64,000 nt of DNA from a virus. Taxonomy: Duplodnaviria > Caudoviricetes. The stretch is from IMG/VR virus record IMGVR_UViG_3300032280_000800, positions 47,750 to 111,749 of that record. One strand, written 5' to 3'. The position numbers and the translations under genes are program-made. The notes below the pieces were generated by a model, which saw only the letters and a program-made list of their open reading frames with translations, had not been told where the DNA came from and ran no database searches. The number at the start of each line of letters is the position of its first letter. The first letter of the stretch is position 1. Below, one piece after another: positions 870-48,217 of this stretch.

Positions 870-907
870 ACAGTATCAAATCCCATACAAAAACGTAAAT
901 AGTTGCT

Positions 908-1375: not shown

Positions 1376-1494
1376 TAAGTCATAAAATATAAATCATAAT
1401 CTTTTACATAGAGTTTTAAATTGACACATATAACTTTTTCTAATACAAAAGTTTTATCATTCGGAAAAAAGTCAATATAATCTAAGGAGCCCAA

Positions 1495-3687: not shown

Positions 3688-3709
3688 CTCTATTCCGAAA
3701 GGTAATAAC

Positions 3710-5015: not shown

Positions 5016-5403
5016 CATACAACACAAAGAAGATGAGCTTGTAACTAATAGATATTATACTCTTATGGATCAACAGGATTTCTTAGACAAGGACAATAAT
5101 CCATGCAGGAATGAACAGTCAGATATTGTCTATGCAAAAGCAATTCTTAATAAAAAACCTAAACATATTGCTGATAATAAAGTATATTATGCTTATTATG
5201 TTATGTTAAATCCAAAGAACGAACTATATAACCCCGTACAGATACACTCAACTATTAAAGAGAAATCTAAATTTGTAGATAAGGTTTGTAAAACTGAGTG
5301 GTTTTTTAAAGAAGTAGATAAGTCAGTTTTTGATACATATGTAGATTTTTTAAGAACTAAAAACTTAAGACTATTACAAAAGGCTAATAGGAGCTTGAAG
5401 TAA
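4990..5403 (+). CDS. hypothetical phage protein (paralog of 5740-6081)
   Basis: 137-aa ORF overlapping its upstream neighbour. Shares YAK..Y..N..NP..F..V...VF..Y..FL...N..LL pattern with 5740-6081. Confidence 0.7.
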   Translation: MKINIKDFDIQHKEDELVTNRYYTLMDQQDFLDKDNNPCRNEQSDIVYAKAILNKKPKHIADNKVYYAYYVMLNPKNELYNPVQIHSTIKEKSKFVDKVCKTEWFFKEVDKSVFDTYVDFLRTKNLRLLQKANRSLK

Positions 5404-28835: not shown

Positions 28836-30765
28836 TATCTTTATCCTTGTCTAATATTACTGTAACTGTTTCTTTTGTTGTGTTATAAAAAAATTCTATA
28901 TTTTGTGTTACATATCCTTTTTTAAATATTTCCACACTGTACTTTCCATAACCTAAATCTTTAATAATCTTATATCCACAATCGTCTAAAGTATAATTTT
29001 GACCAATTATTTTATAGCAAGCATCGATGGGGTTTATATTTAATAATACCCCGTTTTTAAATTCTGGATCAGAAAATAATAGCCTATTAGGCGGTTTATT
29101 ATATACATTTAATAACGATGCGTCAATATCGAACGTGCTTGCTGATTGTATCATAGATAATTCTCTTTCTTTTTCAGAAGAGTCTAAAATCTCTATATCA
29201 AAAGAGTCAGTATTAATAAATTCATTATTATAAATTAAAGCGCTACTATTATTGTCTTTAATTTTAAGAATGTATTTACCATACATTAAATTATTTATTG
29301 TTAAATGATATTTATCATTAAAATTTAAAGTTCGCGTATCTCCAAACTCATTTGTTAATATTGCAATCAAGGAGCTTTTATCAGCATTCGATACATGACA
29401 GGTTATTGACCCAAGCCTATTATTACTCTTTGTAGTTAATGACTGAGTAGTTAAATTTTTGTGTTTATTAATAAACAGTATTGGTTCAATATCTATTGTA
29501 TTATTATGAATAATGTTTAATATAGTAGAAATATTATTAGAAAAATACAATCCGCTTTTAATAAATACTTGTTTAATTTGAGTATCTATGTAACTATTGT
29601 TTGATAATTCATTTATTTTTATAATATCATTATTTTTATAAGCAAAACTATAATCATTAGATATAATCATAGATCCTATAACTAATTTAGCTCGACCACT
29701 ACCAAAAACATGTTCTAAATTAATTTCTTTATCATTAAATAAAAGCTTACTTTTTACAAAATGTGGGGCCTCTATACCTGGAGATATATAGTAATATTGA
29801 TATTCTTGATCATTTATAACAATATTTCCATAATCCATACATAGTTTTTGTTCTATTTGATGATTACCATTTTTAATAGATATTTCAGACGAAAGAATAT
29901 CTGAATAGTCTGAGGATTTACTTAATGGTAGCAGCAATAAATTGTATACTACTTTAGCTTCTACAGGATCAAATAATGCCTTGGTGCTATAATCATTAAA
30001 TCTACTCACATTAACAGATATTGGTTTTGGTTGACTAATAGTAAAATTTCTAATAATCTCACAATTATTTTTATCTGTAACTATTAATTTATAGTCCCCA
30101 GCAACTAACTTATAATTAATAGATGTTTGATTTACTATAATAGGCTGCGGAACGTCTTCTTTAAACCATGCTACTTTATATGGCTCAACACCACCAGTAA
30201 TATTGCAAGAAACATTGCTCGAAACCCCATTGTACTGTGTAATGGGCTCCCATTTTATTTCTACAGATAGTGGCTTTGTAATAATTCTTATTTCTTTTTT
30301 TTCGGCTATACATCCATTTTTATCAGTAACGGATATGTTATAATAATAATTGGGCTTAATTATATAATCATAAAATGTTTGAGATGTATTAATTTTAAAA
30401 TTATTAATACTTAATATATATGGGGCTAGTCCACCAGACCACTCTATATGCATAGAAATATTATCGTTATAGCACTGTATATCTCCAACATGAACCAAGT
30501 CCATAGACAAAGCGTCTGCACAAGATAAGTCAATATCAATAGTTTCTGTTGATTTTTTAAGTAAATTATAAATTTGAAGAGTATATACTCCACAAGATAG
30601 ATTGTATACTGTTTTACCATAGTCAGCTATCAAAGCATCAGTATTAATATTAGTCCAACTAAAAGATAGTAGACCATTAGATCTATCGATAATGGTAATA
30701 CTACCAGTTTTCTGATCTATGCATTTAGGCTTAACTGTTTGTATTGAATAAGATTTTGTATTCAT
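28828..30765 (-). CDS. SprB-repeat-like beta-sandwich protein (possible receptor-binding/adhesin), C-terminal PEGA-like domain
   Basis: SGGLAPY, TGGVEPYKVAW, AGDYKLIVTDKNNC, VTDKNGC repeats; LGYGKYSVEIFKKGY at the C-terminus. Visibly more AT/Ile/Asn-rich than its neighbours. Confidence 0.6.
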   Translation of the reverse strand: MNTKSYSIQTVKPKCIDQKTGSITIIDRSNGLLSFSWTNINTDALIADYGKTVYNLSCGVYTLQIYNLLKKSTETIDIDLSCADALSMDLVHVGDIQCYNDNISMHIEWSGGLAPYILSINNFKINTSQTFYDYIIKPNYYYNISVTDKNGCIAEKKEIRIITKPLSVEIKWEPITQYNGVSSNVSCNITGGVEPYKVAWFKEDVPQPIIVNQTSINYKLVAGDYKLIVTDKNNCEIIRNFTISQPKPISVNVSRFNDYSTKALFDPVEAKVVYNLLLLPLSKSSDYSDILSSEISIKNGNHQIEQKLCMDYGNIVINDQEYQYYYISPGIEAPHFVKSKLLFNDKEINLEHVFGSGRAKLVIGSMIISNDYSFAYKNNDIIKINELSNNSYIDTQIKQVFIKSGLYFSNNISTILNIIHNNTIDIEPILFINKHKNLTTQSLTTKSNNRLGSITCHVSNADKSSLIAILTNEFGDTRTLNFNDKYHLTINNLMYGKYILKIKDNNSSALIYNNEFINTDSFDIEILDSSEKERELSMIQSASTFDIDASLLNVYNKPPNRLLFSDPEFKNGVLLNINPIDACYKIIGQNYTLDDCGYKIIKDLGYGKYSVEIFKKGYVTQNIEFFYNTTKETVTVILDKDKDNA

Positions 30766-32410: not shown

Positions 32411-35400
32411 TTATCTACCTAATCCAATCAATTCGGTAACTCTTAATTGTATCTTATCTACTAGTCGTTTTTCGTCTTCTGGACTTAATTTATAGCTACT
32501 ATCTGCTGGAGATGTTAATTCTACTTCTATCTTACCCCCTTTAAAGGTTACTATTTCTGGAATACTTGGTCCTTTAATTTCAATAGATTTAATAGAATCT
32601 AAACCTCTAATAAAAGTATCAACATGTTTTCCAAAAGCGCTAACGGGACCACCTAATGCAGGGAAAACTCTTGCTAGATTATTTATAAGAGCTCCTAAAT
32701 TAGCAGTCTCAGCACCAAAAGATTTGATAAAGCTGTCAAATACTGTGTTGGCACTAGTCATATCAAATCCCATAGCCTTACCAAAAGATTGTGCCACGTT
32801 CATAACATTACTTCCTCCGCCAACCTTTCTATATATTGGATTAATAATTCCTCCAGATTGAGCATATGAAACTCCGCCCATACTGGGGGCGCTGCCAATA
32901 CTTCCATTATTAATAGCATTTAATAGTGGTAAGTGTTTATTTGTCGCTTGTTTATTTACAACATATTCTCCACGAGTTAACATTGCTGGAATAGTATCTG
33001 TACCCTTGGGTTGATAATTTACTAAAACAGAACCACCAGAGGATAAGTATTTGGGTTTAATAACATTGTCTAGATGGCTTCTTAATTTTTTCTCTTCTAA
33101 TATTTCTGGCCTATAAGCAGCTACATCATTCATATTAACTGCAACGTCTCCAAACCTATGCATACGATTATAATATTTTTGATATCCAAACCATGAAGAA
33201 TTCTCTTGGGTACTATTGTCTTTAAATGTTGGAATATTCTCAAATAATAATTTACCCAGATCAGATAATAATGGAGTGTATTGCTCGGCTTCGGATCGTT
33301 GAAGTGTCTCATCATTAAAAATTGCTTGAGCTTTTTGTTGTACTCTTTGATGAGCTAATTGAATTTTCTCTTTAACGTCTTGACCTAAAGATGGAGATGC
33401 TGCTGGGGCTTTGGGAGGAACTACTCCTGGCTTGTCTCCACCAGCACCAGCTGCTTCAATATCCTTAGCTTCCACAGACTGCATATCTAGATGTTTTTTC
33501 AAGTAAATAAAATTTGGATTACCGAATGGTGATGGCATAGTTGGGAAATTTGAAATTTCGCCAGTATATTTGCCTCCGAGTCTAGCTACTTGTTGTTTAA
33601 TCATTTCATATGGCTGTTGATACTCTGTAAATAGTCCAGAATATCCAGCAAAGAATCTATCAACAGTATCTGCTGGTATTTGTTTGTCAGCAATTTCTAC
33701 CTGATTTGCTCCCCTGTAAATTTTAGGCATTCCATTATTATCAATGGTTTGCACAATAGTTTTATTAGCATTTGGATCTGGCTTATTTACTAAGTCGGCA
33801 ACAGGCTCTGTGCCATAGCTTCTTAATGAATCCCAGAATTCATATGGCTTTTTAAGAGTTTTTAATCTATCTTGTATACCTTTTGCTGCTTTGTGATAAG
33901 ACGTATCTGGTGTTGTTGCTTTTAAATCTTTTGAACTTAATGCTTCTAGTCTTGCTTGTCTTTCGCTTACATTACGATCCTTATTAAAATTAAGAGTGTC
34001 TACTAAGAATTCTAAAAATTTAGTTTCTCCAGATAATGGCTTATTGTCCTGACCCATGAAAGGCTGCGCTGCTGCGTCACCAATTTCTGTATTTGCTCCG
34101 TTTAATAGATTAGCTCCTGCTGCAATTTCTCTCATTAATCCTGGAGTAATAGATTCTCTATTATTAATGGTAAATGTGTCAAGATTTTTAATTCTATCCA
34201 AAGTATTAACATCTGCTAAAACTGTATTTCTAACTTCTTCTGGGGTTCCGGGTAGTTTATAGTTGTCGTCAATTCTTTTCCATTGTTTAATGTCTTTTGG
34301 TGCTATTCCACCAAAAACCTTATCTAAATTAGCTCTCTTCCAAGTTGTATATCCTTGTCCAAGTTTTTTACGTAAACTAGTAATTTGTTCTTCTTCTGTT
34401 TTCCCTTCTGGTTTATTATCTATAGTTAGTTTCTTAAATCCTGGATTTACTTTTTTATATATGTTAGGATTACCATCTGCCATTTGTCCAGTATACAAGC
34501 CCATAGCAGCAATAGCATTCTGATAATTCTTTATAGTTTTTGGCAAAACATATTGTTCTTTGGATCTATTATCAGTTTGTGACGATGTAACCCCCTTAAT
34601 CTGTTTAAGGAATGCTTGCTTATAATTTTCTACAAAACTATCATCGTATGCTTTTTCTGTTGTTTGCAAGTTCCATAAACCAAACTTATCTGCAAAACTA
34701 TCGGTGGTAGGATTAGCACTTGCTGTACCATACATATTTTGTAGTTTATCCAAATTCCACGATAAACTACTATTAACAGATGGTAGGGACTGTGCAATAG
34801 TTGGATCTATTTTTTGTATCCAAGCTTTAAATTGTTCATTATTTTCTGGTATTTTTTCTTTAATACCAAGAGCACTACCATAATTCTTTAGCATTGTACT
34901 GATTAATTCATTAGTATCTCTAATGTATGGTCCAGACTCTCCGACAACATTCATCGATCCGGGTCTGCCATATGCCATATCAAAATTACTAAAAGTTTTG
35001 AATGGATTAATATGGGCTCCACCCTTTAATGGAGTATTAAATAATACGTATTCCATAGATGGAGAAGATTCAAATTTAACGCCAGCACCAACACGATTTT
35101 TGTATAGTTTATCTAATACTTCTTGTTTTTGTCTTTCTAATAGTTTAACAGAGTCTGAGTCTCTGCCTTCTTTTTTAATTTTCTCTGCTATATCTTTGTC
35201 AATTTTCTGCATTTGTACAGTAGCTTGATTTCTTTCTTCTTCGCTAAGAGTACCCATTCCAGTCATCATTTGGAGTGGATTGTTTTGTAAATCTTCTCTG
35301 TTTTCCCATCTGGCTCTCATAGTCCAATACTTCTCAAGCTCAGCATCATATTTATCTCTTTGCTTATTAAAGAAATCCCATGCTTTGCTAGATTCAATAA

Positions 35401-38400
35401 TGTTATTAGCTTTGGATGTTTTTTCTTCTAATTTACTGACTAATTTTTTACGGTTATCTTCAGAATCTCCAGGGTATCCATACTTGGTTAGTAAATCATT
35501 AATAACCTTTTGTGCAGCAACTTTATCTTCTTTGGTAACTCCAGTAATACCAGCAGATCCAGAGCCACTAAAGTTTTGCGACTTAAATTTACTATCAGAT
35601 AACTTATCTCGTAAATGTTTTTGTAGCATTTTACTTTGTGTTGTAACCTGTTGTGCGGCTTCTGGACCTCTTGATATTGGACTGTTATCTAGGTCTGGTA
35701 TGGATCCGCCAGCAAAATCTTTAAGATATCTAGATTTTAATTCATTAAACTTATTAATAACTAAACTATTCTCATCAGTATCTGTACCAGCAATATCCTG
35801 TTGAACAACACCAAATTCTCTTAAGTATTGTTGTAATGCCTGTTCGTTCGTTTGTTTTTTCTTATCTGACGGTATTGAAGATAGTGGAGTACTAAGAATA
35901 GATGCATTTCTCGTATACGCATTAAAATCCATTTTACCATCACTTTTCATAGCTTTGGCAACAATGGCTGGAAATGGCTTTCCGTTCATATCAAAAATAT
36001 CTTCTCCGTCAAATTTGTCTTCATTATTTCCTTTAAAGCCAAAATCTTGTGGTTTTGGTATTATTGGACTGGTAACATTAAATGCTGGGAAAGTATTTCC
36101 ATCTACATTCGGTATTCCAAGATTATTTTGTGCGATATAATCTCGTTCTAATTTTTTACGTAAAGCATTTCTTTCGTCAATATCCTTTTGCATATCTGGG
36201 GATATTGTCTTGGCATCTGACACTGTTTTGAGTTTCTCGTCGAGCTCTTTAAGTCTCTTATTTGCTTCTTCTCTTTCTTGTGCTCTTAACAGTTGCCCAC
36301 GATCAGAGCCATCACCCAGTTCATATTTTGGTATTTTTGCTCCACGAGCAGTAAAGTTAACCGCCCCCATAGGATCTTTAAGTCCCATAGCTTGTGCAAG
36401 TTGCATCTGACCAAACATATACTGATTGTCTTTGGTAGCAAATTCTTCAGTTCTATCTCTTTGCGTTGTCTCATAAGCTCTCTTTGCTACTTCCGCATTA
36501 ATTTTCATCTCTTCAATTGGGTCTGCCGACCATGTTGGTTTTGGTAATGGTCCTCCAGTAACCGGACCAGATGATCCAGAAGCTCCAGCATCTGGTGGCA
36601 TTGGTCTTTCTCCAAAAACAGCATTATATGCAGCAGAACCGATACCAGATACAATAGGCAGTGCTTGAAAAGCAAGACTAGTATAGCTTAATTTTCTCAA
36701 TACATCCCACGCTTTTGCTGATGTGGTATCTCCCTTTATTTTTAATTTTTCCCAAGCCCATTTACCAACAACATCTTTATAAGACGGACCCTTGGGGGCC
36801 TTCTTTTGTTTTATTAGGAGTTTCCCCTTCCTCTTCGGATCAGGTAAAACATTAAGACCCTGCTTTTTCAGAAGATCTAGTGCTTCGTCTTGACTAGTAG
36901 CCTCTATTGTGTCTCTTACTTCTCTTCCAGTTCGTGTGTCTAGGGCTTCATATATAAAAGTGGATTTTGGAGGCGTTTTTCCTGCTGCTGGAGCAGGTTT
37001 TGGTTTCGTTGAACCCGAAGGTTTTTTGGGTTTTGTTGTGTCAGAAGACTTGGGCTTGTATATGCTAGGTTTACCCTTCTCTACACTACGGCGACTAGCC
37101 AAAACATCCAAACCTTGCTTTTTAAGAAGTGCTATCGCTTCCTCTTGACTAACCGCTTCTATCGAATCTCTTACATCCATTCCAAAAGTTTTAGAACCAG
37201 CTCGTGTATCTCTAGCTTCATATTTGAAAGTAGATTTTGGTTTTATTGGGACTATTGGTGAATCCGCCCTTGGTTCTGCTGGAGTAGCTTCTGGTTTTGG
37301 TGCGACTGGTTTGGGAGGAGCTGCTGTTGGCTTTGTGTCTGACGCTTGTTGAGCAACCGCAGCTTCATTTGGAGTTTCTGGAGGTTTAGTTTTGGTTCCG
37401 GTTTTAGCTGCTTTTGCTTTAGCTGCTTTTCTAGCAGCATTAGCTGCTTCACCTACTCTAGCCTGTTCAAGTAATCTTGCACGTTCTGCCATCATTTCTG
37501 GCGTTGGATTAACAACAGCCTCACCAACCACCCTCTTGGATTTTTGAACAGTTTGTTCTGTACCGTCTTTAAATAATGCTAAACTTCTATTAGTAATTTC
37601 ATTAGCATTAGCGATAGGAATACTATTGGGAGAAAGTTTAATAGCATTAGATGTAATAGCGCCATTCTGTAACATTTTTGAGCTTACTGAGGTCGCTTTA
37701 CCAAAAGCTGATGTCATACCCTTTCTGATCATATCATCAGCAGCAGCACCTCCCATTAACTCAGCACCAAAGCCTATCCACTGTCCTCCTGAATATGATT
37801 CTGGACTAGCCTTCATCTTGTCCATAACTCTCTTCTTCATAGATGCTGGAATATATTTATTCCAGATATATGAATTTATATCTTGTCCTATTTGATCTCC
37901 AAGCATACCTCCAGTAAAGCCTAAAGATAATGCTCCAGCGGTTCCTGTAACGATTGCTCCTGGGCCAGTAATCAAGCCGCCCAGAGTTCCGATGGATCCA
38001 CCGGCAATTGCACCTAAACCACCACCAACAGCACCCAATACCCCAGGAATTGCTTTACTAGCCAAGCCATACATTAGACTTTCGAAATCAGCTGGCTCAA
38101 GGCCTAGTTTAGTATTTCTAAAAGCATTATCAACCTTCATAAATTCTGGAGTAAATGGAAAATTTCTATCTCCACCGAAGTAATTTTCTTCTAACGGATT
38201 ACGTCCACCAGTGATTCGTTTATCATACTGTATAGCGTGAGCAGCTTCGTAGGTTTTGTACCAATCCAAACTCGGACCAGGTTTAAGTTGTTTGTCTCTA
38301 AATGCTATTGCTTTATTTAAACTTTGATTGATTTGTTGAGTTTTGTTTTTATCTCCTCCAAAACCTAAAAATCCAGCAGCTTGTTTCTTTTCTTTTTGTA

Positions 38401-41400
38401 AATTGTCTATCAAAAGATCATTATCTGATAATATCTTATATTTTTGTTGTGCGGACGTTGAGAGGTATTTCTCATGATGCCCTGATACTGCCGAATTATA
38501 ACTCTTTAATTCTGACTTATTCAGTATGTTGTCTTTTGAGTTTGATCTAAAATCTACATACTTTAATAGATCGCTCTGTGGAAAATTATTTAAAGGAATA
38601 TGATCGGATGTTCCAGCTAATTTTTCCCACTCTGTATCTGGCACTATGGGGAATCTACTGCGAACACTACGGTCTAATAAACCTCCCTTAGATAAATATT
38701 TAACGCTGCCACCATTACTATACTTACCACTATTTATACTTTGTAATAATGGTAAATTCCTAGCTGTAGCAGCTCTATTAACAACGAATTCTCCCGGTGT
38801 TAACATTGCTGGAACAGTATCTGTTCCTTTGGGAGCAAAATCAACCATAGAGCCCATAGCGTAATAACTTATTAAACCACCTTTAGCTTTAGGAACAGCT
38901 CCGTCCACTCCTCCCAACCCTAATCTATTAGCAACACCATTTAATTGATCAACAATATCAGTAATAGCTGTTCTCATCTTATTTGTAAAATCATCAGCGG
39001 ATAACGACAGAGCCTGTGCTAATAATTGTCCGCTATCAGATATTAATCCTGATTGAGCCATAACAGCTTCTGTTTGAATTTTGGCAGCTTGGTTGAATGC
39101 ATCTATGTATGGTTTAATTTGTGGATTTTCTTGTGGTCTACCAAAATCAGGACCGAATACTTCTTTAAACTGATCAAATACAGCGGGGTCTCCGCCAGCA
39201 TTACCCAGTATGCGTGTAATATTATCAAATAATTCTTTTTGTAAGCGGGCAAATTCTTCTGGTGTTCTAGTAGATTCCAAAGATTGTAATGTTGATATTG
39301 CTCCCGGAATATCTTGTCTGCCACCAGCACCACCAACAACTCTATTGTAAGACTCAGTATCTTTAGCAAAATTAAACATAGCTTCAGGATTATCTAACAT
39401 ACCAAAGAAATCCATAACACTACGACGACGACCAGCAGAAATTTGTGATTGTTCATCAATCTTCTTAAGAGCGGCAGAAGCCCTATCTGTATTATTCGCT
39501 AGTGTATCTAGTGCTTTAGTATATTTATTAATTTTTGATGTTAGTTTTGCAATTTCGCCTGAGCCTAACGCGCTAGTTGCTGTTCCAGGATCGCTTTCTA
39601 GTATTCTCTTTCTGGCAACAGCATCCGCTATTTCTTTACCAATAGCAGTTGGATCTGTTATACCTCCAGTTAATCCTCTAACAGCAGAGTCTGATGGGTC
39701 AGTAAGCTCTCTTAATGAGATTGTTTGATTAAACTTTTCTTTAAGCTGTATGGCGCTTTGTAAATTGATGTCTTGTACTCTCACAGTATTATCTGCTAAT
39801 TTATCAAAATTACCAGCTAGCTGATCAGACACTGCACCAAGCTTACGATTAACATCTATTTGTTTCTTAGCATAATCTTCAAATGTTGCTCTAGCTTTTT
39901 CGGCAGCATCACTCAATTCTTTGAACGCTTGAACATCATTTGCAAGTTCTTCCATGGTCATGCCTTGTCTATTCATACTAGTACTAGCCCTTATCCACTT
40001 CATGACCTCGTCTTCTAGTTCTTTACGAATATCTGGAGACATATCAAGTCCACCAAACATGTTTGTTAGTCTTGAACGAACATTAGCTTCTGAACCAGCC
40101 GAAATATCAGCATTTGCCGTATCTCTTAATATTAAAGGCAATTCTTGTTGAATAGCCTGAAAGCCTTTAATAAAATCCCCCATTTGTTTGGTTTGCTTAT
40201 TATCTCCTAAACTCTTACCCACACTATCTACAGCAGATGCTAGCTCCTCTCTGCTATATGCTGTGATATTTTCTAGAATCCTAGCGTTTTGTGAATCTCC
40301 TTCATAGGCTTTGGCACCTCCGCCAGATAATTCACCAGCAACACTCATAGCTCTATCAGCACTTGCTCCTATTTCAGATACAATACGAGTCATGCTTGTT
40401 GATAGTCTATTCATAATATCAACAATATCTAATGTGAATTTTTTAACTGATCTATTAACAATCTCAAGTCTAGCTGCTAGTATTCTAGATCTATTTTCTC
40501 CACCTAGTTCTTTTTCTACAATAGCATCGATGTTGTCTGCTGCTGTTTTATTTTGGACTTTACCTTCTGGTGAGTAAGCTTGTTGATATTCTTTAACTGC
40601 TGTGGCTTCGTCCATACCTTGTCTTTGTCTGGCTTCATAATATATTCTTTTTCTAAGCTGGTCCTGTGCTTTAGCAACAGCCTCATCTGCTTTTTTACGT
40701 TTCTCAGAACCCGGCGCTAATGTGTCTAAAAATTCTTGTACGGTCTGAGAATTATCTACCTTCATTCCTTGAGCTTCTAAATTACTCCGCATCTGTTGTT
40801 CTTGTAAAATATTTAAAGAATTAAGTCTACCAGCACTGTCTTTTGATCTACCATATGCTGCTCTTCTTTGGTCTGCTGTTAGAGCAGCCTTCTCTATTGG
40901 TTGGCTTTGAGTAAGAACTCTTTCTGCAAAGGCTTGATTGCTAGTAGCGAACGCTTCGGTATTGTCTGCAATCTTTCTAAGTTGAATCAAACTCTCCATT
41001 TCTTTTTTAGCTTGTTCTATATCTTTACTATTATCAAAATAACCTTTGAAACCTTCAAATACTCCAACTAATTGAGATATAACAAATGCTATTTCTAATA
41101 GACCAGCGGCGCCACCACCCTTATATCCTCTAACAGCACCACCAGAAGCTAAGTGCTGAACACCTCCTGATGAAACTTTTGGTGATCTACCTGATGTTGA
41201 AATTTTGCTAGAAAACGCCCCAACAGAACCACCACGAGCAACTCTTTGTTGTTCTTGTATAGCATTTGGTTTCATTACTTGAGAATTAAACATATCTTGT
41301 ACAGACGATGATTTTATAACATAACTGAACGGCTTTACAGAAGTAGATACAGTATCAACATTGCTTGGTGCTCCCGGAACAATGTATGCTGACCCCAATT

Positions 41401-44400
41401 TCTGAGCAACTGTATTATTAACAGCACTTGCTCCACCACGATTAAGAGCGTCCAATTCTTGTATACTAGCTGGTAACGGTGGAGGTATAACCATCTCACC
41501 TTTTGCTAATTTAACAGGAACTAATCCTCCAGCAGACAACCCTACTCTACCGCCAGCAGCTTTTCTACTACGCCTTCTGCCTCCTCCACCGCTGGGCATA
41601 CCTCCTCCTATACGACTACCAATTTGAGCAGCTACCATCATACCCATAATGCTTGTCATAGTTGATAGCATACCTTCAAGGCCACTAGCAAAAGCATTCC
41701 ATACTTTATTATCCTTAATGGTTGTAGCTGATTTTTCTAAAGAAACATTTAATGCTTGATAGTTTCTATTCATTCTATCTAATAGTTCTTCTCTTTCTCC
41801 AAAAGTTTTAGCAGTAGCAAGCTCTCCTAGTGTTTTGTTGAGTTCGTTTGAAGCTCCAGCCACACCTCTCATAGCAAGTTCGGTTTCTTTGGCTGTTGAT
41901 TCTTTTATGAAACCAGCAACAGCACCGCTGGCTATACCAGCAGCACCACCTATAGCAGCACCCTTACCCTTAAAAGCCTGAGCGCCGATTAATGCTCCAC
42001 TCATACCGTATGAGCCAGCGCTTTGTAATGCTCCAGTAAAACCAGCTAGTGCTGGACTAGTATCAGAAACAGTACCAGCAAATTGATCTAAGCTATTTAA
42101 TATGGACGGCATTTGTGCGCTTAGTTGTGTTGCTCCTAAGCCTATAATACCAGTAATACCACCTATTTTATCTCCCATCTTGGTAACTCTGTCAGCAACT
42201 TTGGGAAAAGATCTCTCTATTAATCCCATTCCTGGAAGATTAGCTGTACTGTTAGCTCGTGCAACCCTGTCTAATCTTTGTCCTGTTGTCGATTCTAAAT
42301 TTCTTTGAGCCTGCCTTAAGTTTCCTTGTTCAAAGGCTCCAAACTTACCTTCCTTAAGAGACTGTTGTGCCCTAACATCAATACCCCTCACCTTCATTTT
42401 GCCGGTTAAGAACCCTAGTTCTTTTTCAAATTCTGAATGAGCGTGTTCTAATTCTGATAAGATTGTAATATCTTTATCTATAACGTTTGCTAATCCCTTA
42501 GAATCAAGGCTAGTTTTAATATCAGCAATAGAAGAGCCTCCTACTTTCTGCATACTTGCTATGATATCGTCTATAGATTTAGCTAAATCTGTTTCACCTA
42601 TTTTAGGATCAATTTTCTTAAATAACTCAGTAAGTCCTTCTCTGGTAGTTTTTTCAACATCTACATCTCCAATCTGACCCATATTTTTAGTAATTAGGTC
42701 TTGTATATCTGTTTGCGCAGTTGTCTTCTCCTCTGTCGCTTTTTCTGCCCTATTGTAAATTTGCTGTCTTATATTACGTTCATATTGTTGAAGGCTAATG
42801 CCGAGTTTATCAACAATTCTTTGTAAATAATCCATTCTATCAGCATCAACAGAGCCACCTCCTGCAAATTTACGGAGACCAACTCCACCACCACGATTAA
42901 GCCCTAAAGCTTTGGTCGCCTTTGCTCTCAAAACAAAACTACCAACTGGTAGATTAGTTCTGATGCTGTCGCTAGTACCACTACCCGGCCCTTTAAATAC
43001 TCCAACGCCACCACCTACCGCAAAACTTCCCATACCATTTTTATCAGCTTGGTTCATGCGGCCTAGCCTGCCATATCCTATACTTTTGGCAGTTGCCGGA
43101 GGAATGTAAGCCTCTCCATTACTAACTAGCGCAGGAACAGTTCCTCCCCCAGCAAATTGCGTAATGAATCCGCCATTAGCTTTTTGTTCAGCATCTTTGT
43201 TTCTATTGGCTCCTAAAAATTTAAATACATCATCAAAAGATCCACTATATACAATCTTAGCGCCACCTTCTGGATCATGCTCAAAAACATCATACCAAGT
43301 CCTTTTAGAATTAAAGGAATCCATGATGCTTTTACCTTCTCTCCACGAATATTTCTTACTCGGAGTTCCTCCGTCTGCAAACTTTTGTAGTATTCCTCCA
43401 TGAGATTTTTTAGTAGGTAACTTCTGCCCCATGGCTTTAAGAATATTATCTAATTCGGATACGGCAATATCTCCACTACCATACTGATCTAATAAAGCAT
43501 ATAGGGTCTCTGATAATGCGGTTACTCTACCTTGATTTGGTACTGACGTTCCCTTGGCTAGCTCCTGATAATCTGGCCAAGCCTTTTGTGCTTTAGATAG
43601 TTTGCGTTGAATAGAAGTTTTTTCGTCAGGGTCTTTTGTTGACTTTAATTCATCTTCTAATTCGCTAATATAGCTTGGAAAAGATGATCTAATATGACTA
43701 TCAATTGATGGATCAAAAGATAACTGTCCAGTTTTCTTAAACGAGCCTATAGCTTCTTCTGCTTGTGTATAAGCAGTATTACGACTTTCTGCCATTAGCG
43801 CTGCTGATGCTCTAGCTTCTTTAGCTGCTAGTGCTGGATTTTTTGTTTGTACTGACTTACCAAATGGTAATACTTCTTCTATCTCTGTATACCATCCGTC
43901 ATATTGCTTAATTAAATCTGGCTTAAGGGCTTCTAAAGCTTCTGGTTCTATATCATCTGGTAACTTAACTAATTTTTTGCCAATAGCAATACCAGCGCCA
44001 CCAGATTCAAAAGTCCACTTGTTAAGCTTATCATAATAATCAGCTAATACTTTGGGAAGCTTAATGCCGTAATGATCTGACCACTCAACACTATCATCGG
44101 TATCCGCATCCCTATAGGCTTGCGCAGCAAATGCGGCGTGATCTGATGGTGATAGTGGAACAAATCCACGAGCACCATAGGCCCCTCTTCTTTTGTTCTT
44201 GGTAGATCTATCTGGCTTAACGCCTCCCATAGACCCATCATCAAAAGCTTGAACTTGCCCACCCTCAAACCATTTACTAGGATTCTCATCATAATATCTA
44301 CCAAACTCTTTACGAGCTCTATCAAAAGCATAGCCAGTAAGAGTTCTCTTTACTTCTGTTGGAATATTACTTGGTATACCAAAATATTTAGCAGCTGGGC

Positions 44401-47400
44401 CGAGACCATTTTCAAAGTCTACAGCTCTATTTTGTTCTAGTTGAGCAATTGGTGGTAGGCTGGCACCAAGCTCTGCTAATGCTGCCTCTACGACAGCGCC
44501 CTCAATATTTCCTTGACCCATTAACTCTTGATATTCTGGAGCTAGTCCTGGCTCTTTATAGAGATAAGCTTTTTTTCCAGATTTTTCAGCAGCACCAACA
44601 TTATCTGCGTTATCATCAATTAATTTTTCTGCTTTACTTAAATTAGCTGCTTTGGCACTAGCAATATCTGTTCCAAGACCCTGACTGACTCCGGTAATAT
44701 CTTCTTTACGGTAAGGTAAACCAAAACTCTGAAGAGTCTGTGCCAAAAGATCCTCAGTATTTTGTGGTCTAGCAGTAAGGACTCTGGTTTGTTTAATAAA
44801 GTCTGGATTGGCATCTATTAGAGATTTTAACTTGGCTCCTAGTTTTGTTAATCTACCCTTCTTTAGAGCTTCTTCTACGACGGTTCTATCAGAATATTTG
44901 GGAATGTCAGGCTTGCCTTTTTCATTAAGAATATCTGCTCCAGCAACTAAAGTTTCATCAAAATCGAAAGCTAATGGCTCGCCAGTGAATATATCGGCAT
45001 ATTGTAGATTTTCTGCAAACTGACTCTTAGCGGATGCTGTTTGTTGTTGCATTTTAGTAACAGCATCGAAATATTGGGACTTGAAGCCTCTAGCATAAGC
45101 ATAAACAGTGCGATTATTACCAATATCCCAATTATCAAAATCTTTAGAATAATCTAATTTACCCTGACTATCTACTAAACCAACAACACCAACCTTTTTC
45201 ATTTTTTCAACTTTGGCAGCATACTCTGCGTCTTGTACTCCCTTAGACGATAGAGCATTATTGATTACGTCTGAAGCACCAAGTAAATCTATCTGCCCCT
45301 TAGAAATCATGTCTTTCCTAAGCCTTCTGCGTAGATTAGTAGGGATAGCCGTTAGTTCTGCTACACCAGCTTCGTTACCTAGTCCGGCTAATTGCTTAAC
45401 TAAAACATCTCTAACAGCTTCTTCTATACTTAATCCTGCGTCACTCTTAAGGCTCTTTTTAGCTAAAATACCAACTTGTCCATAAGGTCTTAATAAGCTT
45501 TCATCAACATCAACTTCACCAGCATCAGCAAATTTTTGTATGAATCCTCCATTGGATTTTTTATTTGCCAGCACTTCTCTCATTCCTGTAGTAATATTAT
45601 GACGTCCGCTATTTCCTTCTTTCTTATATGCGGCGGGCTGATTGAATCCTGCTAATAATTTTTTAGCTTTGTCGTCTTTGTCAGTTACAACCTGTTCAAT
45701 AGATTGTGTTAATACTCCTGGTAAAATTTTTGATACCTCAGGATCAGTATCATAAAAATCGTTGCCTAAAGCTTTTATATTAGCAGCTAACTGTTTTTTT
45801 AAGGGCGTGTAATTATCATTCAGTATTTCTTGTTCTTCTGAATCTCCTCTACCTGTGAATCTAAATCTCTTATTGCTACCAGTTCTTAAAGATTTGAAAA
45901 CATCTCTACTCTTAACATAAGAAGCTAATTTACTATTAAAAGACCCTTCATTATTTATGATATATTTACCATCTACTTGCTTGGCCCAGTCAGCATTCCA
46001 AGTTTCTGGTAAGTCAAGCCCCATATTACTATAAAGCCTAGTAATATTCCCATAACCATTTTCTTGAGCATATTTTTTTAAATTTTTTGGAATATCAGTT
46101 TGAGTTTTAGCTAGCTCTATATGAGTAAAATCAGTATCTCCACCAGAAGGAAGTTGTTTATTAACTGTTTTAGATTTTTTAACTCCCTTATCACCAGATG
46201 ACCCCTTACCAAATCTTTGTACAACTCCCCCACTATTCATAGCATCTAGTGTGTCTGTGCCATATTTATTAACAGCATCACGACTCATAACATATTCTCT
46301 TGGCTCTAATAGAGCAGATACTTTGTCTCCTCTACCAGTACCAGGAACACTACCACCTCTTTTAAATCCTAATATCTTGCCTCCATTACTAGCTGTTGTT
46401 GGACTAGTTGGGCTAGATCCTCCTGTTGTAAGAGACAGAGTATCTATAGCTTGAGTTAGATTATTTAAGCCAATAATCATATTTGCTAATGTAATATTAA
46501 CAATCGATAATTGTGATGTATTTGCTGCTGTAGCAATAGTATTGGCTTTTACAGATTTGGAACTTGCTGGAGTACCCTTACCACCTTTGCCTCCAGAACC
46601 TCCTGAGCCGCCACCACCTGGACCGCCACCACCTGGACCGCCACCAGAACCACCTCCTCCAGTTGGAGGTCCACCAGAACCACCACTTGGTGCTCCACCT
46701 CTGCCAATACCTCCTACAAACCCAGAAGCAAATTCACTAAGAATAGAAGCTCCCTTAATAGCGGCCAAGGCTGTCAACATTGGCAATAGTGGCTTGAGTG
46801 CTGATGCCATAGAAATAAAAGCATTGGCTGTGGTTAAGCTAATGGTTGCAATTGTTCTAAATGTACTACTATTACCAATATCTCTAATTAAAGCAACAAA
46901 TGCTTGTCGTGTTTTTTCAAACTGAACAGCTAATGATTGTTGAGCTTGTACAGCGTTTTTGCTTAATGATGCCTGACCATTTTGAGCAACTGATAAGGCA
47001 TCTTGAGCAGTGGCGAATTGTTGAATAAGTGGGATAACTTTACCTATTTGTCTAAATCCACCAAGCTCTTCTACTATTTTAGAAAATCTTATATCTCTAG
47101 GATCAAGACCGGATAACCCTTCACTTAATCTTCTTACGGCCTCATATGGCCCAACGAACTTCCCTTCTAGATCGGTTAATACTATGCCGTACTCCTTTAA
47201 AGCTTCTATTGTTGAGCCTCTCTGAATTCTAGTAAAAATAGTCCTTAAGCCCGTAGCAATAGTTTCTGCACTTTCACGAGTTGTTGCTCTAACACTAGTA
47301 AATAAAGCAACGAATTCATTTAAAGCGTCTGTGCCTTTGCTAACTCCATTGCTAGCAGCAGCAAAAACACCACCGGTCCTTTGAATAGCTGTGATAATAT

Positions 47401-48217
47401 CTCCGGCCTCAACAGCAAATGCAGCAGCTACAGCATTGATACTACCCAAAGCACCCTCTAGCTCACCAGTACTAATATTAAACTGACGCATTAAAGCAAT
47501 ACTGCCTTCGACCGTACTATTTAAATCATCAAAGGATGGAGCTAATGCCGACTTGGCTAGGGCTTCTAATGCTGTTTTGGTGTCTTGGGCAGATAATCCT
47601 GCCTGTGCTAGTGTCACTGACACTTGTAGTAAATCGGACGAAGTCACACCCAAATTGGTAGATAGTCTTGTAATTTCTTTGGTAATATCAGATAGTCCCG
47701 AAACACTTGTTCCAGTAACTTGTGATAATCTAACTATCTCTTTATCAAAATTAACGAATTCTTTAAAAGCACTATTAACTGCATTGGTTAAGCCATAAAT
47801 AACACCAGTAACCGTACTAAAAGCAGCAAACCTTCTAATAGCTAATCCAGACTGCTTACCAAACTCTTGCATTTGTGTACCAGCAACAGAAACAGCTTTA
47901 CCAGCATTGCTAGCGGCTTTACCTGTTGCTGCCAATGTTGTTGGTCCAGAAGAACCTAGTCCTCCTAAGCTAGTTGCTAATTGTTGTATGCTAGCACTTA
48001 ATTGATTAATATTACTATTAGCTTTAATCGCATTAGTAGAAATATTTTGTAATCCCTTATTAACTGTAGCTATACTTTTAGAAGCCGATCCTTTGAGGTC
48101 TAAATCAACCTTAACTTTAATATTAGATAATTGTTTTCTAATAGAAGAAGCAATAGCTCTTGTATTTGTAGGACCTCGTAGATTAATCTGTGCAGTTAAA
48201 TTAAATGCTGCTGCCAT
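32411..48217 (-). CDS. giant tape measure protein with embedded cargo domains
   Basis: 5268 aa. N-terminal TP901-type tape-measure region (FDKEIVRLSQVTG...LAQAGLS...ETIATGLRTIFTRI), repeated GTD(T/S)VPAML..GE.V modules typical of TMPs, position after the tube and chaperone genes, SD GGAG. Confidence 0.9.
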   Translation of the reverse strand: MAAAFNLTAQINLRGPTNTRAIASSIRKQLSNIKVKVDLDLKGSASKSIATVNKGLQNISTNAIKANSNINQLSASIQQLATSLGGLGSSGPTTLAATGKAASNAGKAVSVAGTQMQEFGKQSGLAIRRFAAFSTVTGVIYGLTNAVNSAFKEFVNFDKEIVRLSQVTGTSVSGLSDITKEITRLSTNLGVTSSDLLQVSVTLAQAGLSAQDTKTALEALAKSALAPSFDDLNSTVEGSIALMRQFNISTGELEGALGSINAVAAAFAVEAGDIITAIQRTGGVFAAASNGVSKGTDALNEFVALFTSVRATTRESAETIATGLRTIFTRIQRGSTIEALKEYGIVLTDLEGKFVGPYEAVRRLSEGLSGLDPRDIRFSKIVEELGGFRQIGKVIPLIQQFATAQDALSVAQNGQASLSKNAVQAQQSLAVQFEKTRQAFVALIRDIGNSSTFRTIATISLTTANAFISMASALKPLLPMLTALAAIKGASILSEFASGFVGGIGRGGAPSGGSGGPPTGGGGSGGGPGGGGPGGGGSGGSGGKGGKGTPASSKSVKANTIATAANTSQLSIVNITLANMIIGLNNLTQAIDTLSLTTGGSSPTSPTTASNGGKILGFKRGGSVPGTGRGDKVSALLEPREYVMSRDAVNKYGTDTLDAMNSGGVVQRFGKGSSGDKGVKKSKTVNKQLPSGGDTDFTHIELAKTQTDIPKNLKKYAQENGYGNITRLYSNMGLDLPETWNADWAKQVDGKYIINNEGSFNSKLASYVKSRDVFKSLRTGSNKRFRFTGRGDSEEQEILNDNYTPLKKQLAANIKALGNDFYDTDPEVSKILPGVLTQSIEQVVTDKDDKAKKLLAGFNQPAAYKKEGNSGRHNITTGMREVLANKKSNGGFIQKFADAGEVDVDESLLRPYGQVGILAKKSLKSDAGLSIEEAVRDVLVKQLAGLGNEAGVAELTAIPTNLRRRLRKDMISKGQIDLLGASDVINNALSSKGVQDAEYAAKVEKMKKVGVVGLVDSQGKLDYSKDFDNWDIGNNRTVYAYARGFKSQYFDAVTKMQQQTASAKSQFAENLQYADIFTGEPLAFDFDETLVAGADILNEKGKPDIPKYSDRTVVEEALKKGRLTKLGAKLKSLIDANPDFIKQTRVLTARPQNTEDLLAQTLQSFGLPYRKEDITGVSQGLGTDIASAKAANLSKAEKLIDDNADNVGAAEKSGKKAYLYKEPGLAPEYQELMGQGNIEGAVVEAALAELGASLPPIAQLEQNRAVDFENGLGPAAKYFGIPSNIPTEVKRTLTGYAFDRARKEFGRYYDENPSKWFEGGQVQAFDDGSMGGVKPDRSTKNKRRGAYGARGFVPLSPSDHAAFAAQAYRDADTDDSVEWSDHYGIKLPKVLADYYDKLNKWTFESGGAGIAIGKKLVKLPDDIEPEALEALKPDLIKQYDGWYTEIEEVLPFGKSVQTKNPALAAKEARASAALMAESRNTAYTQAEEAIGSFKKTGQLSFDPSIDSHIRSSFPSYISELEDELKSTKDPDEKTSIQRKLSKAQKAWPDYQELAKGTSVPNQGRVTALSETLYALLDQYGSGDIAVSELDNILKAMGQKLPTKKSHGGILQKFADGGTPSKKYSWREGKSIMDSFNSKRTWYDVFEHDPEGGAKIVYSGSFDDVFKFLGANRNKDAEQKANGGFITQFAGGGTVPALVSNGEAYIPPATAKSIGYGRLGRMNQADKNGMGSFAVGGGVGVFKGPGSGTSDSIRTNLPVGSFVLRAKATKALGLNRGGGVGLRKFAGGGSVDADRMDYLQRIVDKLGISLQQYERNIRQQIYNRAEKATEEKTTAQTDIQDLITKNMGQIGDVDVEKTTREGLTELFKKIDPKIGETDLAKSIDDIIASMQKVGGSSIADIKTSLDSKGLANVIDKDITILSELEHAHSEFEKELGFLTGKMKVRGIDVRAQQSLKEGKFGAFEQGNLRQAQRNLESTTGQRLDRVARANSTANLPGMGLIERSFPKVADRVTKMGDKIGGITGIIGLGATQLSAQMPSILNSLDQFAGTVSDTSPALAGFTGALQSAGSYGMSGALIGAQAFKGKGAAIGGAAGIASGAVAGFIKESTAKETELAMRGVAGASNELNKTLGELATAKTFGEREELLDRMNRNYQALNVSLEKSATTIKDNKVWNAFASGLEGMLSTMTSIMGMMVAAQIGSRIGGGMPSGGGGRRRSRKAAGGRVGLSAGGLVPVKLAKGEMVIPPPLPASIQELDALNRGGASAVNNTVAQKLGSAYIVPGAPSNVDTVSTSVKPFSYVIKSSSVQDMFNSQVMKPNAIQEQQRVARGGSVGAFSSKISTSGRSPKVSSGGVQHLASGGAVRGYKGGGAAGLLEIAFVISQLVGVFEGFKGYFDNSKDIEQAKKEMESLIQLRKIADNTEAFATSNQAFAERVLTQSQPIEKAALTADQRRAAYGRSKDSAGRLNSLNILQEQQMRSNLEAQGMKVDNSQTVQEFLDTLAPGSEKRKKADEAVAKAQDQLRKRIYYEARQRQGMDEATAVKEYQQAYSPEGKVQNKTAADNIDAIVEKELGGENRSRILAARLEIVNRSVKKFTLDIVDIMNRLSTSMTRIVSEIGASADRAMSVAGELSGGGAKAYEGDSQNARILENITAYSREELASAVDSVGKSLGDNKQTKQMGDFIKGFQAIQQELPLILRDTANADISAGSEANVRSRLTNMFGGLDMSPDIRKELEDEVMKWIRASTSMNRQGMTMEELANDVQAFKELSDAAEKARATFEDYAKKQIDVNRKLGAVSDQLAGNFDKLADNTVRVQDINLQSAIQLKEKFNQTISLRELTDPSDSAVRGLTGGITDPTAIGKEIADAVARKRILESDPGTATSALGSGEIAKLTSKINKYTKALDTLANNTDRASAALKKIDEQSQISAGRRRSVMDFFGMLDNPEAMFNFAKDTESYNRVVGGAGGRQDIPGAISTLQSLESTRTPEEFARLQKELFDNITRILGNAGGDPAVFDQFKEVFGPDFGRPQENPQIKPYIDAFNQAAKIQTEAVMAQSGLISDSGQLLAQALSLSADDFTNKMRTAITDIVDQLNGVANRLGLGGVDGAVPKAKGGLISYYAMGSMVDFAPKGTDTVPAMLTPGEFVVNRAATARNLPLLQSINSGKYSNGGSVKYLSKGGLLDRSVRSRFPIVPDTEWEKLAGTSDHIPLNNFPQSDLLKYVDFRSNSKDNILNKSELKSYNSAVSGHHEKYLSTSAQQKYKILSDNDLLIDNLQKEKKQAAGFLGFGGDKNKTQQINQSLNKAIAFRDKQLKPGPSLDWYKTYEAAHAIQYDKRITGGRNPLEENYFGGDRNFPFTPEFMKVDNAFRNTKLGLEPADFESLMYGLASKAIPGVLGAVGGGLGAIAGGSIGTLGGLITGPGAIVTGTAGALSLGFTGGMLGDQIGQDINSYIWNKYIPASMKKRVMDKMKASPESYSGGQWIGFGAELMGGAAADDMIRKGMTSAFGKATSVSSKMLQNGAITSNAIKLSPNSIPIANANEITNRSLALFKDGTEQTVQKSKRVVGEAVVNPTPEMMAERARLLEQARVGEAANAARKAAKAKAAKTGTKTKPPETPNEAAVAQQASDTKPTAAPPKPVAPKPEATPAEPRADSPIVPIKPKSTFKYEARDTRAGSKTFGMDVRDSIEAVSQEEAIALLKKQGLDVLASRRSVEKGKPSIYKPKSSDTTKPKKPSGSTKPKPAPAAGKTPPKSTFIYEALDTRTGREVRDTIEATSQDEALDLLKKQGLNVLPDPKRKGKLLIKQKKAPKGPSYKDVVGKWAWEKLKIKGDTTSAKAWDVLRKLSYTSLAFQALPIVSGIGSAAYNAVFGERPMPPDAGASGSSGPVTGGPLPKPTWSADPIEEMKINAEVAKRAYETTQRDRTEEFATKDNQYMFGQMQLAQAMGLKDPMGAVNFTARGAKIPKYELGDGSDRGQLLRAQEREEANKRLKELDEKLKTVSDAKTISPDMQKDIDERNALRKKLERDYIAQNNLGIPNVDGNTFPAFNVTSPIIPKPQDFGFKGNNEDKFDGEDIFDMNGKPFPAIVAKAMKSDGKMDFNAYTRNASILSTPLSSIPSDKKKQTNEQALQQYLREFGVVQQDIAGTDTDENSLVINKFNELKSRYLKDFAGGSIPDLDNSPISRGPEAAQQVTTQSKMLQKHLRDKLSDSKFKSQNFSGSGSAGITGVTKEDKVAAQKVINDLLTKYGYPGDSEDNRKKLVSKLEEKTSKANNIIESSKAWDFFNKQRDKYDAELEKYWTMRARWENREDLQNNPLQMMTGMGTLSEEERNQATVQMQKIDKDIAEKIKKEGRDSDSVKLLERQKQEVLDKLYKNRVGAGVKFESSPSMEYVLFNTPLKGGAHINPFKTFSNFDMAYGRPGSMNVVGESGPYIRDTNELISTMLKNYGSALGIKEKIPENNEQFKAWIQKIDPTIAQSLPSVNSSLSWNLDKLQNMYGTASANPTTDSFADKFGLWNLQTTEKAYDDSFVENYKQAFLKQIKGVTSSQTDNRSKEQYVLPKTIKNYQNAIAAMGLYTGQMADGNPNIYKKVNPGFKKLTIDNKPEGKTEEEQITSLRKKLGQGYTTWKRANLDKVFGGIAPKDIKQWKRIDDNYKLPGTPEEVRNTVLADVNTLDRIKNLDTFTINNRESITPGLMREIAAGANLLNGANTEIGDAAAQPFMGQDNKPLSGETKFLEFLVDTLNFNKDRNVSERQARLEALSSKDLKATTPDTSYHKAAKGIQDRLKTLKKPYEFWDSLRSYGTEPVADLVNKPDPNANKTIVQTIDNNGMPKIYRGANQVEIADKQIPADTVDRFFAGYSGLFTEYQQPYEMIKQQVARLGGKYTGEISNFPTMPSPFGNPNFIYLKKHLDMQSVEAKDIEAAGAGGDKPGVVPPKAPAASPSLGQDVKEKIQLAHQRVQQKAQAIFNDETLQRSEAEQYTPLLSDLGKLLFENIPTFKDNSTQENSSWFGYQKYYNRMHRFGDVAVNMNDVAAYRPEILEEKKLRSHLDNVIKPKYLSSGGSVLVNYQPKGTDTIPAMLTRGEYVVNKQATNKHLPLLNAINNGSIGSAPSMGGVSYAQSGGIINPIYRKVGGGSNVMNVAQSFGKAMGFDMTSANTVFDSFIKSFGAETANLGALINNLARVFPALGGPVSAFGKHVDTFIRGLDSIKSIEIKGPSIPEIVTFKGGKIEVELTSPADSSYKLSPEDEKRLVDKIQLRVTELIGLGR
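36845..37238 (-). repeat. two tandem ~41-46-aa PilC/GspF N-terminal-like domains inside TMP
   Basis: KSTFKYEARDTRAG...VRDSIEAVSQEEAIALLKKQGLDVL (~37238-37100) and KSTFIYEALDTRTGREVRDTIEATSQDEALDLLKKQGLNVL (~36968-36845). Confidence 0.75.
44555..44980 (-). other. HAD-superfamily phosphatase domain inside TMP
   Basis: AFDFDETL (motif I), VLTAR (II), AK (III), LIDD (IV). Confidence 0.8.

Follow-up and report, generated by a model that had tools for sequence, protein, structure and literature searches.

A giant phage tape measure protein with apparently exchangeable cassettes and putative enzyme cargo between repeated glycine-rich joints

The 64,000-nt stretch of the IMG/VR virus record IMGVR_UViG_3300032280_000800 analysed here (positions 47,750 to 111,749 of that record; hereafter the window) encodes a TP901-type tail tape measure protein (TMP; PF10145 / TIGR01760 kind) in a single unbroken open reading frame (ORF) of 5268 codons, stop codon counted (32411-48217, minus strand). 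Comparison with related proteins gives good support to the view that the segments of this TMP lying between copies of a short glycine-rich motif are cassettes that can be exchanged among relatives. The explanation that we favour for the whole, and regard as reasonably probable, is a TMP built from cassettes, exchanged at these joints, with enzyme cargo that would be carried in the tail to the host. An initial annotation had noticed the recurring motif and had read the protein as a cargo polyprotein whose linkers are processing sites and/or recombination anchors; its observation is confirmed, and its interpretation is partly supported. PF10145 (PhageMin_Tail) matches residues 180-374 (E 3.7e-25, 89 bits against a cut-off of 33) and is the sole match in a Pfam scan of the entire protein, and the PHROG TMP families 28, 4211, 1533 and 1272 match within its initial 1,000 residues. 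Below, P0001 is the window's TMP, other P numbers denote related proteins and L numbers denote IMG/VR loci.

Glycine-rich joints and the exchange of cassettes

The motif recurs far above the expectation from shuffled sequence. All 11 copies reported by the initial annotation are present, none more than 3 nt from where it had placed them, and a profile of the copies yields the consensus K[KY][SA]NGGx[VI]x[YK][FY]ADGG over ~15 residues. A loose pattern of the motif has nine matches in the protein, where shuffling of the whole protein leaves 0.34 and shuffling of 60-residue blocks 1.0; a strict pattern has four, the corresponding values being 0.0075 and 0.05. The motif flanks a longer conserved element of ~45 aa that had been missed earlier, the GEFV module (..GTDTVPAMLTPGEFVVN..L..IN.G; consensus GGGVPPGTDTVPAMLTPGEFVINKKATKKIGLGLLNAINSG), whose core residues (D, A, L, G-E-x-V, L and N) hardly vary and which occurs six times here (aa 621-664, 1690-1727, 1735-1776, 2232-2263, 3122-3166 and 5061-5106). 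Gly-rich stretches are present in the TMP, and the recurrence could in principle be a biologically meaningless by-product of low complexity or of a chimeric assembly; we consider this next to impossible. It is refuted by the block-preserving shuffles of the strict pattern, by the conservation of motif and module, in position and in sequence, in hundreds of independent contigs, in lambda and in mycobacteriophage Douge, and by relatives that are 91-92% identical across the full TMP length and located on independent assemblies. Given the latter, the giant ORF is no product of misassembly.

The window TMP belongs to a family of about 100 TMPs of 2,897-7,733 residues, the N-terminal 500 residues of which are 56-100% identical and which are divergent elsewhere; the TMP core is encoded in 433 IMG/VR stretches. 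GEFV modules are found in all family members (mean 5.1 per protein, up to nine, never zero), and their number correlates with TMP length (r 0.68). The median start of the first module is residue 538, and the median end of the last is 171 residues before the C terminus. In the explanation favoured here, the TMPs of this clade have grown to 3,000-7,800 residues through cassette addition. The family consensus comprises four scaffold modules with variable stretches between them. The largest relatives found are P0102 (7,794 aa), with 13 joint blocks, and P0103 (7,872 aa), with 11.

As the initial annotation had supposed, the segments between motifs are swapped, inserted or replaced in alignments of related TMPs while the motifs are kept, and this is visible in alignment breakpoints, in the insertion of an ADP-ribosyltransferase (ART) domain and in a permutation of cassettes. 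P0002 and P0003 are ~99% identical to the window TMP except at aa 669-856, from joint block 1 to the next motif, where identity drops to 37-54%; this joint block is a hotspot for insertion and replacement among relatives. DNA homology between the window and L005 ends at aa 671-683 and restarts at aa 884. Exactly after residue 668, P0003 and L005 carry a 178-aa insert whose borders are a duplicated motif (..SGGAVQRF/SIGG ... ALGGAIQKF/GKGSS, slashes marking the borders). PF03496 (ADPrib_exo_Tox) matches the insert (L005 aa 600-900; 32.5 bits against a cut-off of 23.4), in which the ART motifs R, STS and ExE are read from sequence as LNRSL, FLSTSS and EKE; no match to PF03496 was found in aa 669-886 of the window TMP, and the ART domain is present only in P0003 and L005. 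Two other TMPs that are 91-92% identical, P0011 (aa 869-1764) and P0012 (aa 874-1770), contain two ~430-residue cassettes in opposite order, and all four junctions of this swap fall inside GGxVQKFxxGG.

Exchange boundaries coincide with joints across the family as well. Of the ends of long high-scoring segment pairs, 34% are no more than 20 aa away from a joint, compared with 9.6% for random positions. Among 25 non-redundant pure insertions, a joint is located within 30 residues of a boundary in 64% (22% at random) and at both boundaries in 16% (1.2% at random), and the motif is visible by eye in several further pure insertions. The segment containing a predicted HAD domain, which is the C part of unit B+C, occurs in 52 of the 100 relatives at positions 885-3487, and a motif follows it in 27 of 41 cases. 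Synonymous divergence (dS) from L005 is 1.28 in the N-terminal core (46718-48217) and 0.47 in the HAD unit (44267-45514); this 2.7-fold difference between core and cargo therefore indicates separate histories of parts of the gene, a further sign of mosaicism.

Exchange junctions are found at the motif. The motif copies in the window gene have no long identical DNA in common, and a role of the motif as a recombinogenic DNA repeat is unsupported for that reason. Because of this lack of identity, we read the joints as places that tolerate in-frame recombinants, and in the sequence comparisons they look like permissive junctions maintained by selection.

Folded units and predicted enzymes

The unit between the second and third motif copies (aa 902-1317) is predicted to contain a cap-less HAD phosphatase of the Pnkp/nucleotidase type. 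TMP aa 880-1335 were modelled with AlphaFold2 (AF2) from an alignment of 19 sequences. The mean predicted local distance difference test (pLDDT) score of the model is 83, with the bordering motifs below 50 and everything between them folded, and its HAD domain has the Rossmannoid HAD fold. A fold search places this domain closest to T4 polynucleotide kinase (Pnkp), namely to its 3'-phosphatase domain; at the sequence level, neither the HAD segment nor a profile of its family had a match in the PDB, and the fold search alone identified the domain. The HAD motif noticed in the initial annotation is borne out by four intact catalytic motifs (D1085-F-D1087-E-T1089, T1148-A-R-P, K1189 and D1201-D1202), which are invariant in the 19-sequence alignment and correspond to DFDxTL, TARP, K and DD..N, each of which reaches 80% conservation or more among 50 homologues. 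The HAD unit is under strong purifying selection, with a ratio of nonsynonymous to synonymous divergence (dN/dS) from L005 of 0.07, compared with 0.11 for segment D and 0.065 for the core. A search for stand-alone homologues of the B+C unit, 228-728 aa in length, found none. In L049, L063, L007, L014 and others, the B+C unit's C-terminal half (G..E...D..GLG.AA.F....PT..KRT) is present without the HAD domain, and the HAD domain itself is therefore an optional insert in a larger unit.

The other enzyme signature of the initial annotation, a PD-(D/E)xK-like motif, may be present. Its candidate residues E1244, D1267 and K1290 show little or no variation in the 19-sequence alignment. The model puts D1267 in a coil region, has a single strand (aa 1287-1293) in that half of the unit and does not set the three residues on a canonical nuclease core, which would be alpha-beta-beta-beta-alpha-beta with D...(D/E)xK on strands 2 and 3. 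Of three further strands, at aa 1008-1044, none contains an invariant residue, and the fold search is dominated by the HAD domain. In total, one enzyme domain is assigned in the window TMP (HAD), and an ART and an NTase-associated domain are assigned in relatives. PF16581 (cytidyltransferase-related C-terminal region, E 1.4e-7) lies at L047:15395-15718, TMP aa ~1240-1347, upstream of the HAD unit of the same protein.

Of the segments between the motifs, aa 902-1317 is folded in the AF2 model, and segments F and G/H are ruler-like in composition, being enriched in helix-forming residues (composition only). Hydrophobic stretches lie at aa 2086-2104 and aa 2368-2390. Precomputed Pfam labels suggest EF-hand domains in P0024 and P0028 and sigma-70 region 3 in P0060; a precomputed PF28597 label is attached to this TMP, P0002, P0003 and P0095.

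Possible delivery through the tail and possible maturation

The TMP has a conserved TP901-type N-terminal core followed by a chain of segments, each closing with a 15-residue joint, and four to nine times per protein the joint brackets a ~45-residue GEFV module. The segments are mixed: some resemble ordinary ruler sequence, being enriched in helix-forming residues or of Gly-zipper hydrophobic type, and others are folded globular units. In the explanation that we favour, the joints would act as disordered inter-domain linkers that let in-frame recombinants survive. The tail, whose lumen would hold the TMP, would be very long (about 0.8 µm fully extended, predicted from the TMP at 1.5 Å per residue). 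The TMP would be expelled before the DNA, and its enzyme cassettes would refold and act early on the host, as the polymerase of Thermus phage P23-45 does. That phage, like P74-26, G20c and TSP4, has a 5,002-aa TMP (gp96) with a fused virion RNA polymerase and a very long tail; the polymerase transcribes pre-early genes and is modelled as working while still fused to the TMP (PMC10770324). The likeness lies in a ~5,000-residue TMP of a long-tailed siphophage delivering a large intracellular enzyme, one shown to work in the host ahead of phage gene expression. Unlike the window TMP, to which it has no similarity, gp96 contains neither the GEFV module nor the GG motif, and it carries one fixed N-terminal enzyme, no chain of exchangeable cassettes, with cassette shuffling not described. 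From this analogy (PMC10770324), we infer that delivery ahead of phage gene expression, as the initial annotation envisaged, may occur here.

Several observations weigh against this explanation. Most cassettes have no detectable enzyme in the searched segments of the window TMP and in 20 sampled variable regions of relatives, where a Pfam search returned the PF16581 match and nothing further; the term "enzyme cassettes" used initially holds for the HAD domain here and for the ART of a near-identical relative and was otherwise overstated. Segment D had no usable match in the ESM Atlas. No peptidase family or HExxH motif was found in the window TMP, and no JAB or NlpC/P60 domain in the 112-kb contig. 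A deubiquitinase-like cut at ...GG by a JAB or NlpC/P60 peptidase resembling lambda gpK was considered and rejected, as the contig has no such domain. T5 pb2, the sole TMP with a mapped cut site, does not match the block profile. Joint block M3 was modelled alone (AF2, 141-sequence alignment) with a pLDDT of 61 and ~30 core residues above 70, a short confident core (..TVPAMLTPGEFVVN and a helix) lying between low-confidence motif flanks; a self-contained fold of the GEFV module, for which the S24/S26 peptidase hairpin was the comparison, has no support, this pLDDT being too low for a fold search. Among the ORFs neighbouring the TMP, no tail family was recognised with PHROG or Pfam, and the search for a tail sheath was negative on a contig that is 79% complete. 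Delivery, refolding and cleavage are all inferred for this phage. Finally, the tail lumen is about 4 nm wide, and unfolded storage would be needed because a 415-residue folded unit present three or six times exceeds it.

The bulk of the cargo also bears on the possibility that only the N-terminal core is a tape measure and that the remainder is a polyvalent ejection protein, packaged in the head or displayed externally, that became fused to it. Folded cargo would probably be too bulky for the tail lumen, and there are known polyvalent proteins that are packaged in the head and contain an ART among other domains (PMC5512222). We nevertheless regard such a fusion as improbable. The final GEFV module is, with the C-terminal domain, at the canonical TMP position (median 171 aa from the end), as in lambda, Gly-zipper hydrophobic stretches and stretches rich in helix-forming residues lie deep within the protein, the 5,002-aa TMP of P23-45 accompanies an extremely long tail, and no MuF, portal-associated or capsid-targeting domain was detected in Pfam and PHROG scans of the TMP. 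Pervasive processing domains of the metallopeptidase (MPTase) kind define polyvalent proteins, which are head-associated and include ARTs among their effectors (Iyer et al. 2017; PMC5512222). They are large virion-delivered chains of unrelated effector domains acting early in invasion, a design to which the window TMP may correspond; in contrast, the searches of the window TMP found neither an MPTase nor any other peptidase for processing, and the paper does not mention TMPs (PMC5512222).

Other tail-borne systems share single features with the cassette-built TMP that we favour. Enzyme domains lie within the TMPs of T5 (pb2), SPbeta (YomI) and mycobacteriophages, and pb2 is cleaved after R1127, which frees a metallopeptidase fragment (PMC10038345) and parts the enzyme from the ruler. 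Unlike the present case, the known cargo of these TMPs consists of cell-wall hydrolases, one or two per protein, and neither intracellular-type enzymes (polynucleotide-phosphatase-like HAD, ART) nor routine cassette exchange is described for them. Sle1-type effectors of actinobacterial contractile injection systems likewise combine a TMP-derived scaffold with an exchangeable domain ejected from a tail-like tube; they differ in belonging to an injection system and not a phage and in having a single C-terminal functional domain, and a repeated joint is not reported in the portions of the source available to us (PMC13277306). Literature searches found no description of a gpH-type joint repeated to fence exchangeable TMP cassettes.

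The GEFV element appears, from its distribution in sequence libraries, to be an old TMP feature. Its profile matches the TMPs of 174 cultured-phage records, and the module is present in 37,395 clusters of a library of 1.8 billion proteins, in which the best matches are giants with up to 13 copies. Mycobacteriophage Douge has two copies in its 1,699-aa TMP (gp16), which resembles the window TMP in having the module internally and in more than one copy. GEFV modules were also considered as flanks of a known enzyme in the TMP of mycobacteriophage Patt, in which a Pfam scan found no enzyme. In lambda gpH, the profile matches residues 753-778 (E 2e-8) and 712-795 (E 2e-5), and aa 731-785 have the same motif-module-motif layout in a single copy (FATGG-FTGTGGKYEPAGIVH-RGEFVFTKEATSRIGVGNLYRLMRG-YATGGYVG). 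Pfam PF09718 (Tape_meas_lam_C) maps to gpH 627-701, not to the GEFV module. The shared pattern, FATGG-...-RGEFVFTKEAT..L..L-..YATGG, is preceded in gpH by a hydrophobic Gly-rich stretch, as segment F precedes block 3 and the core precedes block 1. Unlike the window TMP, gpH has 853 aa, one copy near the C terminus, no enzyme cargo and an N-terminal PF06791 domain in place of PF10145.

The position of the module in lambda suggests a role in maturation. Cleavage of lambda gpH within a Gly-rich region yields gpH* and gpHC, a fragment of ~14 kDa (PMC12617516). By mass, this fragment would begin at ~aa 710-725, 10-25 residues upstream of FATGG (733), and the GEFV module of gpH falls within the C-terminal fragment freed by cleavage. 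Published structures model only gpH 818-849 and Douge TMP 1658-1699 and leave the module unresolved (PMC12617516, PMC13033339). The joints may be processing sites, as the initial annotation proposed, the analogy being with lambda gpH only. By the same analogy of position, we tentatively suggest that the GEFV blocks double as maturation cleavage signals and that the protein would arrive in several pieces, which we would not call probable. Its broadest version is doubtful: the FAxGG-GEFV-YAxGG block would be a general TMP maturation signal and the determinant of lambda gpH cleavage, multiplied here so that the precursor would be cut into 5-13 proteins. If true, it would describe a virion polyprotein that fires interchangeable pieces (phosphatase, ADP-ribosyltransferase and others) into the host before the DNA.

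The same blocks could also belong to an intact ruler that is never cut, a possibility to which we give limited credence. The GEFV blocks and GG motifs would then bind a chaperone, the tube lumen or the tip, or register three or six chains, and most cassettes would be fast-diversifying length filler, for example evading TMP-sensing defences, with any enzymes acting while tethered. The near-invariant core of the module exceeds the needs of a flexible linker, the block does not fold alone, as a partner-binding peptide would not, no peptidase was found in the TMP or the contig, P23-45 gp96 is modelled as active while fused, and the long F and G/H segments resemble an ordinary ruler. On the other hand, lambda gpH, which bears the module, is cleaved nearby; the cargo is constrained by purifying selection just as the core is, and is therefore not filler; and the unrelated folds of the cassettes (ART, HAD) argue for roles beyond length. 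The M3 model fits a partner-dependent peptide as well as a processing site.

TMPs are the first phage proteins into the cell, and known TMP cargo beyond cell-wall hydrolases and one RNA polymerase is sparse. The clade described here, in hundreds of contigs, and the ~37,000 module clusters suggest that, in long-tailed phages, the ruler may commonly serve as the chassis of exchangeable enzymes of intracellular type, such as a polynucleotide-phosphatase-like HAD and ADP-ribosyltransferases. Such cassettes might form a reservoir of pre-made takeover or anti-defence factors, mostly without an assigned fold. A conserved element is now located beside the lambda gpH cleavage region, for which the site and the protease have been unidentified for 50 years (PMC12617516), and, lambda being genetically tractable, the cleavage hypothesis is directly testable there.

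Feature map, source genome and neighbouring genes

The coordinates of the features are given in Table 1. By analogy with lambda, Douge and T5 (PMC12617516, PMC13033339), the C-terminal domain would be the end that docks at the tail tip. A twin small domain at aa 3660-3780 (36878-37240, minus strand), within segments I-N, consists of tandem ~35-aa units (PKSTF.YEA.DTR....VRD.IEA.SQ.EA) that are mutually 61% identical and embedded in Pro/Lys-rich linkers.

Table 1. Parts of the window's tape measure protein, from N to C terminus, with window coordinates
Feature	Residues (aa)	Window position (strand)	Basis or remark
Conserved TMP N-terminal core	1-500	46718..48217 (-)	PF10145; 56-100% identical in 100 relatives
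Gly/Pro-rich low-complexity stretch	501-608	46394..46717 (-)	G+P 0.39
Joint block 1: motif, GEFV module, motif-like GGVVQRFGKG	609-680	46178..46393 (-)	Profile matches
Cassette A	669-886	45560..46213 (-)	37-54% identity to relatives elsewhere 99% identical
Lone motif KSNGGFIQKFADAG	887-900	45518..45559 (-)	Disordered in AF2 model
Folded globular unit B+C	902-1317	44267..45514 (-)	pLDDT 80-97; dN/dS 0.07
Predicted cap-less HAD phosphatase domain, T4 Pnkp 3'-phosphatase-like	1078-1224	44546..44986 (-)	Motifs, fold search
Lone motif WFEGGQVQAFDDG	1316-1330	44228..44272 (-)	GG invariant in 19 sequences; disordered in model
Cassette D	1331-1602	43412..44227 (-)	dN/dS 0.11
Lone motif KSHGGILQKFADGG	1604-1617	43367..43408 (-)	Profile match
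Joint block 2: motif, two GEFV modules, motif	1678-1788	42854..43186 (-)	Profile matches
Segment F, rich in helix-forming residues; Gly-zipper hydrophobic stretch aa 2086-2104	1789-2217	41567..42853 (-)	Composition
Joint block 3: motif, degenerate GEFV module(s), motif	2218-2360	41138..41566 (-)	Profile matches
Segments G/H, long ruler-like, rich in helix-forming residues	2361-3108	38894..41137 (-)	Common to about 40 relatives
Joint block M3	3109-3180	38678..38893 (-)	Nearly invariant family-wide
Segments I-N	3181-5060	33038..38677 (-)	Present in closest relatives only
Joint block M4, lambda-like position near C terminus	5061-5135	32813..33037 (-)	Profile matches
C-terminal domain	5136-5268	32414..32812 (-)	

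The source of the window is an uncultured phage with a genome of about 140 kb, represented by an IMG/VR contig of 111.7 kb with an estimated completeness of 79%. DNA and protein searches against cultured phages found no near relative, and the sole cultured resemblance is that of the TMP N-terminal core to SPbeta-like TMPs, at 24% identity. Small ORFs upstream of the TMP gene (300 and 103 aa) and large ones downstream of it (535, 645, 325 and 1030 aa) share its orientation. The 645-aa ORF (28828-30765, minus strand), which is the second gene downstream of the TMP, gives a match to a Hoc-like Ig domain (phrog_2973, E 8e-7), the remaining neighbours being without any PHROG or Pfam family.

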